DNA from: a virus
Lineage: Duplodnaviria; Heunggongvirae; Uroviricota; Caudoviricetes
Virus record (IMG/VR): IMGVR_UViG_2737471848_000001
Coordinates: 1 to 7,109 of that record
Reading direction: 5' to 3' (one strand)
Length of the DNA: 7,109 nucleotides
The notes below the pieces were generated by a model. That model was not told the origin of the DNA and did no database searches. It saw nothing but the letters and a program-made list of their open reading frames with translations. Positions 83 through 7,072 of this stretch are shown here, one piece after another (positions within the stretch are counted from its first letter, which is position 1; each line of letters opens with the position of its first letter). The translations under genes and the position numbers were made by a program.

Positions 83-136
83 CCTGTTTACCTCTTTCTC
101 AGGGAGTTTAGTCTCCAGGATTCCCGGGGCGGTTCA
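1..136 (-). mobile_element. IS3-family insertion sequence, IS629/IS1203-like, left end only (terminal inverted repeat plus start of orfA); element continues beyond window start
   Basis: Minus strand from 136 downward reads TGAACCGCCCCGGGAATCCTGGAGACTAAACTCCCTGAGAAAGAGGTAAACAGG-ATG, a TG-initiated terminal inverted repeat followed by a Shine-Dalgarno (AAGAGG) and an ORF. I recognise this as the IS629-type left end from memory, unverified. Confidence 0.8.
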
Positions 137-640
137 GCTCATGTTGTTGGCGTATGTCTGCCCGGCGTTTGCCTGACCTTGCAGCGCACCAAGCCCAACG
201 TTTGCCAGATTGTTGTAATTGCTCATCTGATTTGATAACCAAGACTGACCGAGTGTCGGCGCGATCGTAGCCAGTTGATTGCTTGTGGCTGTCGAACCAA
301 GTCCACCCGTCGCCTCCGCAGCAGCAAGACTCTGGTAACGCGCCTGCCCTGCAAGGTCTTTATACTGCTGAGAGTTGTAATACTGATTAAGTGCCTGCCC
401 CTGACCTTCTAAACTGGAAAGGTTCTGAAGCTGGTTAACATACTGCTCCGCAAGAGGCGTGAACGGAGCAAGGTTTTTCATGATCGTCTGCCACTGCTGA
501 TTTTGCAGGTCTGCGGCATACTTCTGAGCTTCTGCTGCATATTTTGCGCTTTTATCAGAGTTGCCACCTTTCCCGCCTTTTTCAGGGCAATAAGGTTCCT
601 CACCGCGCAGTTTTCTGCCCAGTTTAAATGCATATAACAT
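134..640 (-). CDS. Ejection (E) protein, P22 gp7-position homolog, apparently C-terminally truncated by the IS insertion (168 codons vs about 229 expected)
   Basis: ATG at 640..638 preceded by GGGAGA; sits where gene 7 lies in P22 order (after gene 14). The stop TGA (136..134) is the first three bases of the IS inverted repeat, so the reading frame runs straight into the IS terminus. Confidence 0.7.
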   Translation of the reverse strand: MLYAFKLGRKLRGEEPYCPEKGGKGGNSDKSAKYAAEAQKYAADLQNQQWQTIMKNLAPFTPLAEQYVNQLQNLSSLEGQGQALNQYYNSQQYKDLAGQARYQSLAAAEATGGLGSTATSNQLATIAPTLGQSWLSNQMSNYNNLANVGLGALQGQANAGQTYANNMS

Positions 641-642
641 GG

Positions 643-1098
643 CTATCTCCCGTGATTCAGGAAGTCGATTAGTTCTTCGCGTGTGGCGCTGTAAAACGTC
701 ACGTCATCCACGCCTTTGAAGTATTTCTTGATGGTTCCTACACGCTTAAGGCCAATCATTGCGCAGTACATCTGACCGTGGCGGAATTTGCGTGCAGCGA
801 ACGATGTGACGCACTGAACGGTGGTGTTAGTCAGAATGTATTTCCAGAACTCCAGCCCGATTTCCTTGCTGAATCCACGAACCTCTGGCAGGTACATGGC
901 GTGGCAATCGAATGTAAGCGGCTGAATCTCCTGATAGTAAACAATGCCGCCAAACTGACCGTGCACGTTAACCTCAAAGTAACGGCATTCAGGCTTGTAA
1001 TCGTATCCATCACCGTTGTTGCTCCCGGCAATAATGTCAGGGTGATTTCCTACTGCTTCTATCAGGTCGATGTTTCGCGTTGGTTTGAACTGAATCAT
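643..1098 (-). CDS. P22 gp14-position protein (head/tail assembly-associated), 151 aa
   Basis: ATG at 1098..1096 overlaps the upstream stop (TAATG); GGAG 7 nt upstream; TAG stop at 645..643. Assigned by gene order between tail needle and gp7 and by size, not by direct sequence recognition. Confidence 0.75.
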   Translation of the reverse strand: MIQFKPTRNIDLIEAVGNHPDIIAGSNNGDGYDYKPECRYFEVNVHGQFGGIVYYQEIQPLTFDCHAMYLPEVRGFSKEIGLEFWKYILTNTTVQCVTSFAARKFRHGQMYCAMIGLKRVGTIKKYFKGVDDVTFYSATREELIDFLNHGR

Positions 1099-1946
1099 TA
1101 CTGCTCCGCGATTATCTTGATGGTTGTGGCAGTAAACGCCGCACCATTTGACTGGATGGTTAACGTACTGCCATTTGTGGCAAGAAATCCGTCTTTATCC
1201 ACGCTGAAGAACGTAGCTAACAGGATGTTGTCGGTTGTTGTCGCCGCATTACGACTGCTAACCAGTGTGTCAGGAACAGAGCCGGAAAAGGTTAGCTGCA
1301 TTGACCTGTTGGCGGTTCCGCTGGGCCACGTCCCGACGATCGACAGCTTGAAGAACAAGGTTTTGTTCTCGTTGAACACAACCATCTTGTTGTTAACGGT
1401 ATCGAAGAATGGCGCTAATGTTCCTGATGACGGCGTGAGCGTTTTCAGCAGACTGACAAGGTTGGTCGGCGCTGTCGGGATGGTTACAGATACGCCAGAG
1501 TAAACAACCTCTGACTTCTTGCGAGTAGTGGCATACTCCAGAGCATCGATGCGAGTTTCATGGTCTGAAAGCGTGTTTTGAATGGCGACAACTTCATCCG
1601 TCAGGTAATCAATATCGTTTTCTGCTGTCGTTAATCGTGAGTCAAGGCTGACTATCGCCGCTTCTGCGTTAGTGATCCTTGTTTCGTGGTCCTGTATCTT
1701 CGCTTCAGCTGATGCCAGTCGAATTTCGTGATCAACCAGAATCACATCCTGCTCATCGTTCCTGACTTGTGCGTCATAAGCGCCCTGTCCGGCCTCGTTG
1801 GCCTTGTTAGCCACGTTACCAACATCAGTGCCCTGTGCGATAACGTAAAGCAGATACGACTGCGAGAAGATATTGCGTGGAAGAACTGATGTATCGAGCC
1901 GCGTAGCTTGGATGATTACCGGCACATTGAGATTCGAATCCGCCAT
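1098..1946 (-). CDS. 26: Tail needle / cell-envelope-penetrating plug protein (P22 gp26 family), 282 aa, with Sf6-like C-terminal knob-type domain
   Basis: N-terminus [43 protein letters not shown] resembles the gp26 N-terminal domain that docks onto gp10; central heptad-like repeats (DHEIRL..DHETRI..DHETRI); C-terminal about 140 aa Ser/Thr-rich beta-type region unlike P22 gp26. ATG overlaps gp10 stop (TAATG), AAGGA SD. Confidence 0.88.
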
Positions 1947-3364
1947 TACTCAATCCTTATCTGGCAGCCAGACAGAGTGACTGGTGACTTCGTGATAACG
2001 CGCAATTTGAAGCCGACATTTTTCCTGATGCGCCCTACTCGTTTCCACAAAACGCGTTTGTCGTAAACGAACGGTTCATTCTGCTCAATCATCTGCTCAC
2101 GTCCGTAATTGATGCCGTCAGTGGTTGCAGAGAGGAACAGTCGGTCGGCGTACTGCGCAACGCCAGTTGACGATTCAACCTCAAGGTCGAAAACTCTGGC
2201 GTTATCTGCTTTGAAGAGTGGAGTAAACAGCAGGTGTTCCTGCTGCTTGTCGTACTGGCTGCTGATATCGAACTGCAATTTCCCGGTCACGGACTCCAGC
2301 TTATCGCCGCACGTTATCTGATTGCCTTCGTAAATGAAGTCGATAGCGCGGTACACATCGTCATACAGGCCTGTTTTCAGCACACACCATTGCGGACCAT
2401 TGGCGCTTGAAGATGCGTCGTAAACAAGAACATGGCGCGGAAGGTGGATAATCAGCAGCTCATGCGCATCAAATCGCAGAGACTCCATCACGCCATCAGC
2501 CAGTTCATCAGCAGTGTAGGAGCGTAGTATTTTCTCAATGCTCGCGCTGGCGATTGGTGATACCTGACCGGAGCCGATGATATACACAGACGGCGCACCT
2601 GTTGCCGGATTGCTGATGAACGCATAAGAATCAGCGAATGGCGTTTTGCAGTAAGTCCCGGCAATACCTTTCTGCACCATCAGCGATGGTTGTGCAACAT
2701 ACAAAGCGGCACCAACGGTGGTTGCACCAGTCAGGGAGAAATATTCAATCGTCGATGAACCAAAGCAGACGATGAAATCTCGCCATGTGCCGATACCGAT
2801 TATTCCGTCAGGCTGTGATTCTGCCCGATATTGTGCGCTGTAGCGGTCAGGATGCGATTCGTCTTCAAGGTCAGTGATAAACCATGAATCGGTGCCGTCT
2901 TTTGACCACGCATAACGCCCACGTAATCGCGTAATGTCGCGGACTGAGCCTAACTCATACTGCGTGAATCCGCTGTCTGCAGGCCAGTTTGAGACGGTTT
3001 TAACCGTGCCATCATAGCGATACTCGACCAGTTGACCATTAACGCCTACAGCCTGAGATGTCCGACCATGAGCCATTGATACGCGACCACTTCCGGAAAC
3101 ATCACCGACTTCGCTTTCGCCCTTATACAGCTTGCCACCACACACGCGATAAACAGCATTCTGCGCCATGTTGTACTCGACGCCTCGTGATACACCGTTC
3201 ACATCAGAACGTTTGGCAATGCCCGGGAATGAGCGAAGATATCCGCTGCTGTTCAGGATTTCTTTGGGTGTAGCCAACATATTCACTGGCAGATAGTCGA
3301 TATAGTCGGCGTTTCGAAAGTCTTTGCCGACACCTTTCATAAGCGGAAGTTGCTGAATCGGCAT
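1946..3364 (-). CDS. 10: Tail accessory factor / tail hub protein (P22 gp10 family), 472 aa
   Basis: 472-aa ORF, same length as P22 gp10 and strongly similar as I recall it (MPIQQLP...); located between gp4 and gp26 homologs; GGGAG SD; stop-start junction TAAATG with gp4. Confidence 0.92.
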
Positions 3365-3865
3365 TTATTCGCTCCCGTTATCGCAAGGTTCCTTCCGGTG
3401 GAAGTAATTCCAACCGTTCCACTTCGCCAACTGATTACCGCTACCAACAGGCATACGGTTTGGATAACCGGACTTACATTTTGCGGCTTTTGCTCTGTCC
3501 ATTGCAGACAGTTTGACGAGTCGCTCTTTCCCGTATCTGGCAGTGGTTATAAGTTTTGCAGACGCTTCCAGCGCATAATCCGGAGCAATGCGGCAGGCAA
3601 GGTTGAAAATGACGGCATTGATAGCGTTATTTGATAAACCGTGTTTATCGCCAGGATCTGGAGCGACATCTGCATCAGCGAAAATGTAGCCAACGTTGAT
3701 ACCTGGTGACGCATCACCGCCAAGCCATTCAGCCATCATCATTTCAAGGTCGTTAACGCCGTCTTCCATAGACTGCGGTTCGACATCGGTTAACGTGGCA
3801 TTTGATGCCACACCGAGCTTACGTAATGCCGCAAGAACTAAATCACCCTTCGTTGTCAGGTTCAT
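3365..3865 (-). CDS. 4: Head completion / tail accessory factor (P22 gp4 family), 166 aa
   Basis: Preferred start ATG 3865..3863 (AAGG upstream) gives 166 aa beginning [33 protein letters not shown], matching the gp4 N-terminus and length. An in-frame upstream ATG at 3928 would give 187 aa. Confidence 0.85.
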
Positions 3866-4067
3866 CTGCTGCCGCCTTAGGTTTTCGACCAGGCTTTTTA
3901 CGCTGTTTTTCTTCTGGCTCTGCAACATCCTTCAAAAGGTCATCAGGATGTGAAAACCAGCCAGCATCCAGATATTCCTGAAGCTCTTCGGCTTTCACGA
4001 TTTCAAAGTCGTATCCAACGCCTTTCCATTTCTTCATGTCTCCATGACGAAAGATCATGTGTGTCAT
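3843..4067 (-). CDS. Small hypothetical protein (74 aa) between coat and gp4; same position as the extra small gene of Sf6-type late operons; function unknown
   Basis: ATG at 4067..4065 with GGAGA 5 nt upstream; acidic body and Lys/Arg/Pro-rich C-terminus ([23 protein letters not shown]); 3' end overlaps the gp4 start by 23 nt. The ORF-track version starts at a GTG at 4115, which I reject. Confidence 0.55.
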
Positions 4068-4079
4068 GCTTGTCTCCAG

Positions 4080-4106
4080 ATAAAAAAGGGAGCCGAAGCT
4101 CCCTCT
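4080..4106 (-). terminator. Rho-independent terminator-like hairpin immediately downstream of the coat gene
   Basis: Minus strand: AGAGGGAGC-TTCG-GCTCCCTTTTTTAT, a GC-rich 6-9 bp stem with a UUCG tetraloop followed by a 6-T run; begins 5 nt after the coat stop codon. Confidence 0.6.
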
Positions 4107-4111
4107 GGTTA

Positions 4112-5407
4112 TCACGCGGTCTGGTTAGGCAGACCAACACCAATTGCCTCTGGTCGTACAGCACATGCTGAATACCACACAGCAATACGGCACTTACCAG
4201 ACAGAGTGTTGATATCACCCTGCGTTGCGAAGATGCCGTTAACACCAATACCAGGAATGCTGAAGGAAGACGTTTTCATGCCAGCAAACAGTTCATGGGT
4301 TACCGGGATCGGCTGAGACAGAAGGCGGATTGAGTCATCAGCCCAGAACACGTTAGCGGTGGTTGTTGCCACGTTCAGAACGTTTACCGGAGTGGTATCA
4401 GCAAGAGAGGTGTTTACGTTAGCGTAAGCCTTCTCTTCTTTTGTCAGTGACGCGTCATCCAGTGCAATCGGTTTCGGCGTGATTTCGATGTGAGTACCAT
4501 CGATCACACGGGTGATTGAGAAAGTAGCATCATCAGTCAGCACGTTCTTCGCCATCTGAGACAGGAATTTCACACCAGTGAAACTGATTTTGTCGCCGCG
4601 CTTAAATCCGGTGGTGGAGGATACGGTCACCGTTGCAACACGGTTGTCGACGTTCTCTTTGTTACCATCGGTATCAAGGGTGTATGCCTGCGGCTTAAAC
4701 TTCTGCGCACCAGAAACAGTTACACCAGTAGCGGTTGACTTGGTAACTGCCGGAAGTTTCGGTGAGCGAAGAATTTCATCAAAGCCAGCAATCTGACGCT
4801 GAATAGTACCGTTGCGATACGCTTCTTCAGGAACGCGCCCGAAGATGTCACCATCTACCAGGTTGCGGCCTGCTTTACGGTAATCGTCAGGGTTCAGGAA
4901 GTAACTGATGCCCATATCGCGGTTTAGCTCACGGGAGAACATCAGGCGCTCTGCATCAGACACAAAATCCCAGCCAGACAGGCCAGTAGATGGACCAATT
5001 GCGCGGGTATCGTGAACAACAAGCGAGCCCATTTCAGTTGCCTGTTTGGCAATCGCTGACTCAATGTTATTCGCCAGTTTTTTGGCGGATGCTTGGATGC
5101 GGCGACGGTAAGAACGCTCATCACGCAGGTCATCTGCACGAAGCTCGAAGAAATCGTTATCCGGATCGCCCATGTTGCATTTCACGGAGAGTTCCAGAAT
5201 CCCGGTTGCGTTGCCAGTTAAATCCCAGCCAGTCTGGGTTGGCGCTTCCTGCTCAACAGGCATCCACACGGTGTTGCTTGAACGCTGCATGGATTCTGCC
5301 GGAGGGGTGTATTTTGTCACTTTTGACGCCATTGGCGTCAGGTTCTGGACGGTTTCGATGATTTCATCCAGAGCATACGTGACCAGTTGACCTTCATTTA
5401 ATGCCAT
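4112..5407 (-). CDS. 5: Major capsid (coat) protein, P22 gp5 type, 431 aa
   Basis: Full-length similarity to P22 coat protein as I recall it (MALNEGQ..., ...[10 protein letters not shown]..., ...[12 protein letters not shown]); AAGGAA SD; start overlaps scaffold stop (TAATG); TGA stop at 4114..4112. Confidence 0.95.
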
Positions 5408-6318
5408 TATCGAATTCCTTTATTCAGTTGCGCCTTGAGCTTGCGGTATGTCTCTACATCCCCTTTGTTTGCTGCCGCTTCCATCTGCCTTTCAATCGCA
5501 GAGATATTTGCAGCAACAGCGTGTCCATGAATGGGTTCATCAGGTAACGGGGCTTCTGAAACAGGCTTGGCTCGAGGCTTGAGAGTTAAACGTTCTGACA
5601 GTCGAGTGAGTTCAATCAGCGCGGATTGCCCGTTCATCGCCAGCAACTGGCGTGTTTTCTCAGGATTAGCACCAAGGTGATACATGAGAGCGGCGGATTT
5701 CTCCGGGAAGAGGCGCATGATGTCGGCACCGACTGCTGGCGGCACCAGTTGCATGAATGCATCCTCTTTCTCCTGATAGTCAGGGATATTGAGCTTTTCC
5801 GCTGCGTCGTAGTGCTTACGGGCTGCCTCGACGTATTGCGCTGATTGCTGGGTGAACTCCTGAGTTTTGCGACCCTGCTCGGCGACAGCCTGGCTTCGTG
5901 CGTCCATAGCCTTGATCTGCCATTCACTGTTTGCCTGCTGGAAGGCGGCCAGTGCGCGGCTCTGGTCATAGTCGTACTTAGCCAGTGCATCTTCGGAAAG
6001 ATAATCGTTAGGGTCTGGTTGTTTTGGTAACTCAGGGTTCACCCGCAGGTGCTCCGGCAATTCTCCACGCTTAACCGCTTCCATCTGCTGCTCAAGCTCA
6101 CGCTGGCGTTTGCGTTCGATGCGGCGACGGGCAAATTCAGCATTAGTTGCCGGGTCTTGTTTTGGTTTCTCATCGTCTTTCAGGACAATCTCGAAGCCTT
6201 CTTCCTGACCTGCGCTGTCGTTGGCATTATCGACAACTAAGCCATCAGCAGATGCCGCTGCATGATTGCCGGGCAGGGTTAATTCTTCAGAAGCCTGAAT
6301 GTCGGTGGTTTGGTCCAT
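5407..6318 (-). CDS. 8: Scaffolding protein, P22 gp8 type, 303 aa
   Basis: 303 aa, same length as P22 gp8, with highly similar sequence by recall (e.g. [25 protein letters not shown]-terminal [19 protein letters not shown] coat-binding helix-turn-helix region); immediately upstream of coat. Confidence 0.93.
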
Positions 6319-6331
6319 GATTAACTCTCTC

Positions 6332-7072
6332 TTATTGAGGTGTCTCGGCTACTCCGCCGGAGGGGATTTGAACTTGACGCATAAGATTCGCGAAATCCAT
6401 GCGTTGTGAATGAGTCTGGTCTGCATCTTTAAGAAGCAGCTCAGCGTTAGCACGAGCATCTTTGCTGCGCTGTTGCTGGAATTGACCTACGAGCTTGAGG
6501 TACTCACGCAGTTCTGCCTGCTTGTCGAGGTCCATATTGTTGAAGATTTCCGCAATCTTCGCGGCGTTGAGTTGGTTTTGGGCTTCAACCTTGGCGGCTT
6601 CAACCTGAATCTGCGCCTGTTGGTTCTCTGCCTTGAGCAATTCAGCCTGACCTTGCAGAAGGATACCCTGCGCCTGAATTTGCTCTGCTGATGGCTGCTG
6701 CGGCTGCTGTTGAGCCTGCTGTACCATCTCCATCTCTTCAGGTGTTTCTGGTTTCTTCAGCCCCATCATCACCAGTTGCTTGTTCGCGTACTCTCGCATC
6801 ATCTCGACGCCTTTACCATCAAGCAGCGTGAAGTATTGCAGCATCAGCATCTGGAACTCTGGAGTACCTTGTGGAACCTTGGTGAGTAACTCCTGAATCT
6901 CTGCGCGGTTCTGTTCCTTCATACTCTGGAAGGATGGTCCAACGTCCGTATAGCACTCATAGCGACCGCGAATGTCGTTGAGTGTGACCACATTGCCGGA
7001 CTGGTAATCGACAACTTGCGCATAGAGTTGAACGTCTTTCTCGCTTCCATCTTCAAGTGTCAGCGTTACATG
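6332..7072 (-). CDS. 1: Portal protein (P22 gp1 type), C-terminal portion only; 5' end not present in window
   Basis: Frame open from 7072 to stop TAA at 6334..6332; Gln/Ala/Glu-rich C-terminal region ending ...SGGVAETPQ, consistent with the long C-terminal helical barrel of the P22 portal; directly upstream of scaffold. The ORF-track start at 6991 is an internal GTG, not the real start. Confidence 0.85.

Follow-up and report, generated by a model that had tools for sequence, protein, structure and literature searches.

Why a hairpin with the build of an intrinsic terminator should stand directly behind the coat gene of a phage late operon, with virion genes still to be transcribed beyond it, is the question raised by the stretch of DNA analysed here (7,109 nucleotides in full length, referred to as the window). 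An earlier note on this DNA had described the hairpin and proposed that it acts as a partial terminator or as a 3' stabiliser, perhaps passed with the help of late antitermination. We followed this proposal from the exact structure of the element through its counterparts and relatives to the functions which it may have.

Gene content and relatives of the window

Judged by its sequence, the window represents the late region of a P22-like (Lederbergvirus) prophage of E. coli. Its real genes are all encoded on the minus strand, and their order, as established from the ORF list and the profile matches, is that of the late operon of phage P22. In this order the features are:

6332-6991, minus strand: portal gene, C-terminal part
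5407-6318, minus strand: scaffolding protein
4112-5407, minus strand: coat (major capsid) gene, 431 aa (PF11651 P22_CoatProtein, E = 2.8e-166; phrog_283 and phrog_22632)
4085-4106, minus strand: hairpin (folding, terminator scan, alignment with the annotated P22 and L elements)
4080-4087, minus strand: U-tract UUUUUUAU (from the sequence; most enterobacterial lineages likewise have a U-tract and then AU)
4074-4077, minus strand: Shine-Dalgarno sequence GGAG of the next ORF, 6 nt ahead of its ATG at 4067-4065 (from the sequence)
3843-4067, minus strand: small ORF, 74 aa, P22 orf69 / phage L orf186 family (phrog_1175, E = 5.6e-37)
3365-3865, minus strand: gene 4 homologue (gp4, head-tail adaptor / tail accessory factor), 166 aa (PF11650 P22_Tail-4, E = 1.6e-58; phrog_637)
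1946-3364, minus strand: gp10
1098-1946, minus strand: needle gp26
643-1098, minus strand: gp14
134-640, minus strand: gp7

The gene 4 homologue and the small ORF overlap by 23 nt, and the gene 4 start is identical to that in the phages APC_JM3.2 and Bas106. Both belong to the nearest sequenced phages, all of them E. coli Lederbergviruses with 94-99% identity (APC_JM3.2, Dewey, IME10, Bas106, Louie and HZ41). The hairpin region was present in 217 of 5,426 complete E. coli genomes, nearly always on the chromosome, and therefore belongs to a common prophage; in E. coli YZ22PE165, window positions 3990-4200 are matched with 100% identity.

With a length of 282 aa, the needle protein gp26 of the window (1098-1946, minus strand) has its match in the 'tail needle knob' family (phrog_1030), while gp26 of P22 has 233 aa. 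Given this size and the phrog_1030 match, the window would be a mosaic of a P22-type coat and a knobbed needle.

Architecture and significance of the post-coat hairpin

In minus-strand order, the end of the coat gene and the start of the next ORF are joined as GCG-TGA-TAACC-AGAGGGAGC-TTCG-GCTCCCTTT-TTTAT-CTGGAGACAAGC-ATG. The coat stop TGA (4114-4112) is followed by an in-frame TAA (4111-4109), which results in the tandem stops TGA-TAA. The hairpin consists of the 5' arm AGAGGGAGC (4106-4098), the loop UUCG (4097-4094), which is closed by a C-G pair and thus forms the extra-stable C(UUCG)G tetraloop, and the 3' arm GCUCCCUUU (4093-4085). The stem comprises 9 bp with five G-C pairs. The U-run (4087-4082) is followed by A4081 and U4080, together giving UUUUUUAU (4087-4080). 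Since the three lowest stem pairs (A-U, G-U, A-U) use the first three U of this run, the canonical reading is a 6-bp GGGAGC/GCUCCC stem with U6AU behind it. Read on the plus strand, the hairpin runs into GGUUAUCAC instead of a U-tract, which makes the element unidirectional. It fills the only real intergenic gap of the window (44 nt); according to the ORF list, all other coding-strand junctions of the 7.1 kb overlap or lie at most 13 nt apart. The location which the earlier note had given, on the minus strand 5 nt past the coat stop with a UUCG loop and a U-tract, was thereby confirmed, with the correction that 12 nt and not 13 nt separate the end of the element from the next ATG.

The features that characterize intrinsic terminators, namely a GC-rich stem of ~5-14 bp with a short loop and a U-tract directly 3' on the transcribed strand, are all present, and the canonical terminator architecture recognized previously (GC stem, tetraloop, adjoining U-tract) holds. 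Strong intrinsic terminators are reported to follow a GC(U)7RU 'HUB' motif with GC at -11/-10 and RU at -2/-1 (bioRxiv 10.64898/2026.05.29.728758). If the transcript were released at U4080, AU at -2/-1 and C at -10 would match this motif with six of the seven U in place, while -11 would be C instead of G and -9 C instead of U. By its sequence, the element would thus fit the motif of the strongest terminators partially.

A calculation of the folding energy, suggested earlier as a check, gave -14.9 kcal/mol for the hairpin and -6.2 +/- 2.1 kcal/mol for shuffled sequences (z = -4.16); none of 200 shuffles folded equally well. A generic terminator scan of the window returned eight sites where 7.5 were expected, which is the chance level overall, and the post-coat hairpin was the strongest of them (9 pairs, 5 G-C). 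A looser, energy-based scan proved too permissive, ranking two antisense-strand hairpins with poor T-tails higher, and strict criteria were used instead (at least 8 bp, at least four G-C pairs and at least six T in eight positions). With these, the post-coat hairpin was the sole match on either strand of the window, and 300 dinucleotide shuffles contained a mean of 0.1 matches per window, with any match at all in 26 of the 300. A covariance-model search of the whole window against Rfam yielded no match at E <= 1.

A second stable hairpin lies on the plus strand opposite the coat gene (4400-4440; -18.3 kcal/mol, z = -4.1) and is followed by UUCUUUUG. It was considered as a partner element and rejected, being kept in near-identical phages and absent from P22 and Proteus phage Brookers; it is probably lineage-specific or due to chance.

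Annotated counterparts in other phages

The post-coat hairpin is a known and ordinary feature, the stem-loop or terminator that follows the major capsid gene of lambdoid and P22-like phages. Its counterparts have already been annotated in P22, phage L and HK97, which the earlier note had missed. A DNA search found 100 Salmonella and Proteus P22-like phages which share the coat 3' end at ~75% identity, with alignments that pass through the hairpin and end at window position 4080 or 4077. In the P22 record BK000583 the aligned element is a 'stem_loop' (6102-6119) with the comment 'putative; similar in location to stem-loops in phage HK97 and phage lambda'. The record of P22-pbi (AF527608) names it 'RNA stem-loop', and those of phage L (AY795968, MW013503) list the aligned element after gene 5 as 'terminator'. 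In the closest E. coli phage records the hairpin is unannotated.

The P22 and L elements are direct homologues which align column for column with that of the window. They share the offset of 5 nt from the coat stop, the GC stem, the 4-nt loop and the U-rich tail ending in AU, and are likewise followed by a Shine-Dalgarno sequence and a gene of the orf69/orf186 family. Differences concern the stem, which is GGGAGC/GCUCCC extended to 9 bp in the window and AGGGGC/GCCCCU with compensated changes in P22, and the U-run, which is an unbroken U6 in the window and UUUCUUU in P22.

In HK97 a 'terminator, putative' stands directly after the major head gene gp5 (GGGCGGG-GAAA-CCCGCCC-UUUU), and lambda carries AUGGCCC-UUCG-GGGCCAU-UGUUUCUCU 2 nt past the stop of gene E, followed by the Shine-Dalgarno sequence and start of Fi. 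As in the window, these hairpins begin 2-6 nt past the capsid stop, are continued by a U-rich tail and the ribosome-binding site of the next gene (in lambda within the E-Fi gap), and lie inside a Q-antiterminated late operon. Both have 7-bp GC stems, with the loop UUCG in lambda and GAAA in HK97, and the U-tract of lambda, UGUUUCUCU, is weak. The capsid genes and flanks of lambda and HK97 are unrelated to those of the window, however, and the likeness is one of analogy or module-level convergence, without alignable homology.

Two further systems are similar in logic. T-phi of phage T7 is a leaky terminator right after the major capsid gene 10; the downstream virion genes are expressed by read-through and the capsid mRNA is enriched. 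T-phi acts on the single-subunit RNA polymerase of the phage, whereas the operon of the window would be transcribed by the host polymerase with a Q-type antiterminator for the bypass; the annotation of the complete relative APC_JM3.2 lists no phage RNA polymerase. By analogy, the element may work like T-phi, but it is not a member of the T-phi type. The REP elements of malEFG and the hairpin of the puf operon are intercistronic stabilisers that cause differential decay within one polycistronic transcript. They also close the segment needed in higher abundance with a stable 3' hairpin, but lack a terminator-type U-tract, whereas the window element has a complete terminator design in the enterobacterial lineages.

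Conservation among relatives

In a check which the earlier note had proposed, the hairpin proved to be present in relatives, with its pairing kept by compensatory changes. The stem does not vary among 80 IMG/VR loci that carry the same coat gene, except for one G-to-A change which turns a G-U into an A-U pair; the loop varies between UUCG, UUCU, UUUG and UUAG, and one locus has a G inside the U-run. The T-run behind GCTCCC comprises six T in 58 of these near-identical loci, four in 15, five in four and seven in two, and is absent in one.

For an analysis of covariation, the window type was aligned with the Proteus, P22, L and Sf101-type elements. Standard pairs made up 92% of the pair cells, and two of the nine pairs change on both sides (GC/UA/AU and GC/AU). 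None of 500 shuffles reached the covariation/pairing score, and sliding the partner strand reduced the pairing to 43-68%. With ~4 independent lineages in the alignment, this modest evidence supports a conserved stem without being overwhelming.

The position of the hairpin appears to be the stronger evidence. More distant coat homologues, down to ~25% protein identity, were collected from Pseudomonas, Kosakonia, Klebsiella, Stutzerimonas and metagenomes and dereplicated to 26 neighbourhoods. The best 32-nt hairpin in these had a mean energy of -16.0 kcal/mol in the 80 nt after the coat gene, compared to -8.0 kcal/mol upstream and -9.3 kcal/mol inside the gene (Wilcoxon, p = 2e-5 and p = 2e-7, respectively). 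A hairpin of -12 kcal/mol or below occurs within 80 nt of the coat stop in 24 of the 26. The two exceptions are Ralstonia phage Firinga, which has no hairpin, and Salmonella phage SE1Spa (DQ003260, ~1994-2030 of our locus L098). In SE1Spa the 5' arm is devoid of GGG (CTAACAG---CTTCGGCCCC) and the stem is destroyed; this may represent a natural viable loss, or else an artefact of Sanger compression at a GC hairpin.

A U-tract stands against the stem in every enterobacterial lineage, despite the differing stems, and ends in AU in most; examples are the window, Brookers, P22, L, Sf101, Kc166B, Skarpretter, sortregn and AH02. In six of the 24 hairpin-bearing lineages, all of them environmental and related to AH02 or Sortsne, the U-tract is missing entirely. 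The universally conserved property is therefore the stable hairpin after the capsid gene and not termination. In these environmental loci (L184, L185, L186, L188, L190 and L204) a GC hairpin of -14.7 to -21.7 kcal/mol follows right after the coat gene and runs nearly straight into the next Shine-Dalgarno site.

Read-through and late antitermination

The genes behind the hairpin depend on transcription that passes it. The Shine-Dalgarno sequence of the next ORF begins 2 nt past the end of the U-tract, so that no promoter fits in between. A promoter scan of the coding strand identified two weak sites, one inside the coat gene and thus upstream of the hairpin (5320-5293) and one inside gp10 (3038-3011), fewer than in shuffled sequences (2 versus 5.9), and no promoter-like site near the hairpin. 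As no promoter separates the hairpin from the next gene, all downstream genes must be transcribed through it. The need for read-through which the earlier note had pointed out is thus upheld, with gp4, gp10, gp26, gp14 and gp7 downstream and no room for a promoter of their own. Its statement that essential genes follow is correct for gene 4 from ~3865 onwards; the gene immediately behind the hairpin, and the first that depends on read-through, is the small 74-aa ORF of the orf69 family and not an essential structural gene. In P22, gp4, gp10, gp26 and the ejection proteins are essential.

Late antitermination, which had been suggested as a way past the hairpin, finds support in a close relative. 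The Q region lies outside the window and the evidence comes from the complete phage APC_JM3.2, which is 99% identical and encodes a Q-type antiterminator of 207 aa (PF03589, E = 1.3e-57) immediately upstream of the lysis and morphogenesis genes. Across its late operon of ~20 kb, the strict criteria were satisfied at only two terminator-like sites, the post-coat hairpin and a site behind the lysis genes, and its early operons hold several, as expected for antiterminated lambdoid operons. Q makes RNA polymerase resistant to terminators and acts at the RNA exit channel (PMC6606751; bioRxiv 10.1101/651190; 10.1101/2022.03.25.485794). The literature covered, which did not extend to the P22 genome papers and the Casjens reviews, contained no direct experimental data for P22-like phages at the post-coat site or for the amounts of late mRNA in lambda, and the site is not discussed in the transcriptome papers on LF82/Gally and BTP1.

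Function of the element

From the observed structure of the element, its significance, its position and its conservation with compensatory changes, together with the need for read-through and the Q gene of the close relative, we infer as the probable function a leaky intrinsic terminator which is bypassed with the help of Q and acts in addition as a 3' stability barrier, causing a step-down in mRNA after the coat gene. Polymerase without the late antiterminator modification would stop at the hairpin. During lytic growth, polymerase modified by Q/gp23 would mostly pass, and gp4, gp10, gp26 and the ejection proteins would still be made. The minority of terminated transcripts, as well as read-through transcripts cut further downstream, would end in a stable hairpin that blocks 3'-to-5' exonucleases. 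The predicted net effect is a step-down in mRNA behind the high-copy scaffold and coat genes, with less message for the low-copy genes of head completion and ejection; this prediction includes actual termination, the height of the step and the stabilising effect. The P22 virion contains ~415 coat subunits versus 12 gp4, six gp10 and three gp26, and a step-down role, which follows the same logic as T-phi of T7, has long been assumed for the stem-loops of lambda, HK97 and P22. The hairpin alone cannot set the stoichiometry, because it would equally stabilise the message of low-copy genes that lie upstream (terminase, portal), and in classic work on lambda the ratios of the late proteins reportedly resulted mainly from translation initiation. 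Q-loaded polymerase may also bypass the site almost fully, in which case stabilisation would be the sole effect.

A pure intercistronic stabiliser of the mRNA is possible, if rather unlikely. Here, Q-modified polymerase would ignore the site altogether, the block to 3' exonucleases would lengthen the half-life of the scaffold-coat message, and the U-tract would be incidental or a relic. The six distant lineages which keep a hairpin without a U-tract at the same position argue for this explanation, as do the terminator resistance conferred by Q and the label of the P22 annotators, which is 'stem_loop' only. All enterobacterial lineages, however, retain the U-tract against differing stems and usually with the AU ending of strong terminators, and a pure exonuclease barrier would need neither the U-tract nor the AU, both of which would be superfluous.

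It is unlikely that the element is chiefly a fail-safe terminator against polymerase that has not been antiterminated, starting for instance in a lysogen from internal or spurious promoters of the capsid region, so that the downstream virion genes would be expressed from Q-modified transcription only. The full intrinsic-terminator architecture would suit such a role, one weak promoter-like site does lie inside the coat gene (5320-5293), and mapping in BTP1 placed four coding-strand promoters within the capsid gene cluster (PMC7067206). BTP1 is a P22-like prophage with the P22-type hairpin and a spontaneous induction of 0.2%. Against this, promoter-like sites in the window are below chance (2 versus 5.9), and leaky expression of gp4 or gp10 is not known to carry any obvious cost. 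Moreover, the position after the most abundant virion protein recurs in unrelated capsid types (HK97, lambda), which favours expression balance over insulation.

The module boundary and the gene behind the hairpin

Identical coat genes are followed by either of two cassettes, an orf69-type ORF or an orf186-type ORF of 195 aa. Sequences with different cassettes are 100% identical up to ~25 nt past the coat stop, where identity collapses, to resume ~186 nt downstream in a shared basic C-terminal tail. The identity between P22 and L breaks where it does among the E. coli phages, and the Salmonella group loses its BLAST homology to them at window position 4080 or 4077. Such a pattern of breaks is expected from lambdoid mosaicism. 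The hairpin is part of the coat module and moves together with the coat gene.

The small ORF of the window shares 37% identity with P22 orf69, and no Pfam family matched it. All forms of the gene behind the hairpin (~3880-4085 on the minus strand of the window, the alternative in our loci L012 and L005) have an N-terminal fold motif and a C-terminal tail in common. The short form, of the P22 orf69 type, comprises 69-88 aa and the long form, of the phage L orf186 type, has 186-195 aa, including an inserted domain of ~120 aa; the swap between them is bounded by the end of the U-tract and the linker, in the E. coli lineages as well as in those of Salmonella. The homologue in Sf101 is annotated as a virion structural protein. 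Between the conserved N-terminal domain and the basic tail (KKPGRKPKA...NEG), the ORF contains a (Glu-Pro)n stretch, which is annotated as a repeat_region in APC_JM3.2. In the window (3909-3923, minus strand) n is 1 (AEPEE), so the repeat annotated in APC_JM3.2 is here a single copy, and Tandem Repeats Finder reported no tandem repeats in the window. Among IMG/VR loci with an essentially identical coat gene, n ranges from 1 to 13 and the ORFs from 74 to 98 aa or more. This looks like slippage-prone hexanucleotide variation in the linker.

The cassettes allow the idea, which we consider improbable, that the hairpin doubles as a fixed left-hand anchor of a swappable cassette which channels recombination between capsid and head-completion modules. 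Still less credible is that its main significance lies in being a recombination joint, a short conserved 'linker' at the module boundary that promotes exchange of the downstream orf69-type or orf186-type cassette. The collapse of identity ~25 nt behind the coat gene, seen within the E. coli group as well as between P22 and L, and the end of homology between the E. coli and Salmonella groups at 4080 or 4077 are what a joint would produce. Mosaic joints at gene boundaries are, however, expected from functional selection alone, and ~25 bp are short for homologous exchange. A joint also leaves the covariation, the U-tract and the occurrence of the same element after non-homologous capsid genes unexplained.

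Control of translation of the next ORF is very improbable as a function. It would rely on an outer helix in which CCAGA (4108-4104) pairs with UCUGG (4080-4076) and hides the first two G of the Shine-Dalgarno sequence. This helix is part of the minimum-free-energy fold of a 151-nt context and is possible in the alternative cassette with one G-U pair, but the centroid structure favours the 9-bp hairpin, and the helix is absent in P22, L and Sf101. As a main role, sequestration of the Shine-Dalgarno sequence was rejected for this lack of conservation. A chance inverted repeat without function, which would agree with the chance rate of generic terminator-like matches (8 versus 7.5), is effectively refuted by the 0.1 strict matches expected per window, the location of the hairpin in the only 44-nt gap and its conservation in 24 of 26 lineages with compensatory changes.

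Consequences for annotation

Two public records call a coding sequence through the hairpin, namely CDS0007 of Dewey (1759-1896 of our locus L002) and gp6 of Brookers (1992-2246 of L088), where the translated hairpin yields the peptide GSFGSLF. Both are probably gene-calling errors: the start of Brookers gp6 should be the ATG behind the hairpin, and Dewey CDS0007 would be spurious. In the window, the corresponding reading, an ORF from GTG at 4115, was rejected, as the indels in the T-run (4-7) break the frame among near-identical genomes, and it is the Shine-Dalgarno sequence and ATG behind the hairpin that are conserved instead. Since the variable T-run shifts the frame relative to this conserved start, the region is non-coding.

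Significance of the element

The element carries little weight as a discovery, being the orthologue of a feature that was already flagged two decades ago when P22, L and HK97 were annotated. It is of practical relevance because P22-like capsids are widely used as nanocontainers, and the element would affect expression from native late-operon fragments. It is conceivable, though improbable, that a terminated 3' end of the coat message also yields a stable Hfq-binding small RNA from the 3' UTR. The enterobacterial lineages with hairpin, U-tract and AU, and the environmental lineages with the hairpin only, provide natural controls by which termination and stabilisation at this site can be separated.
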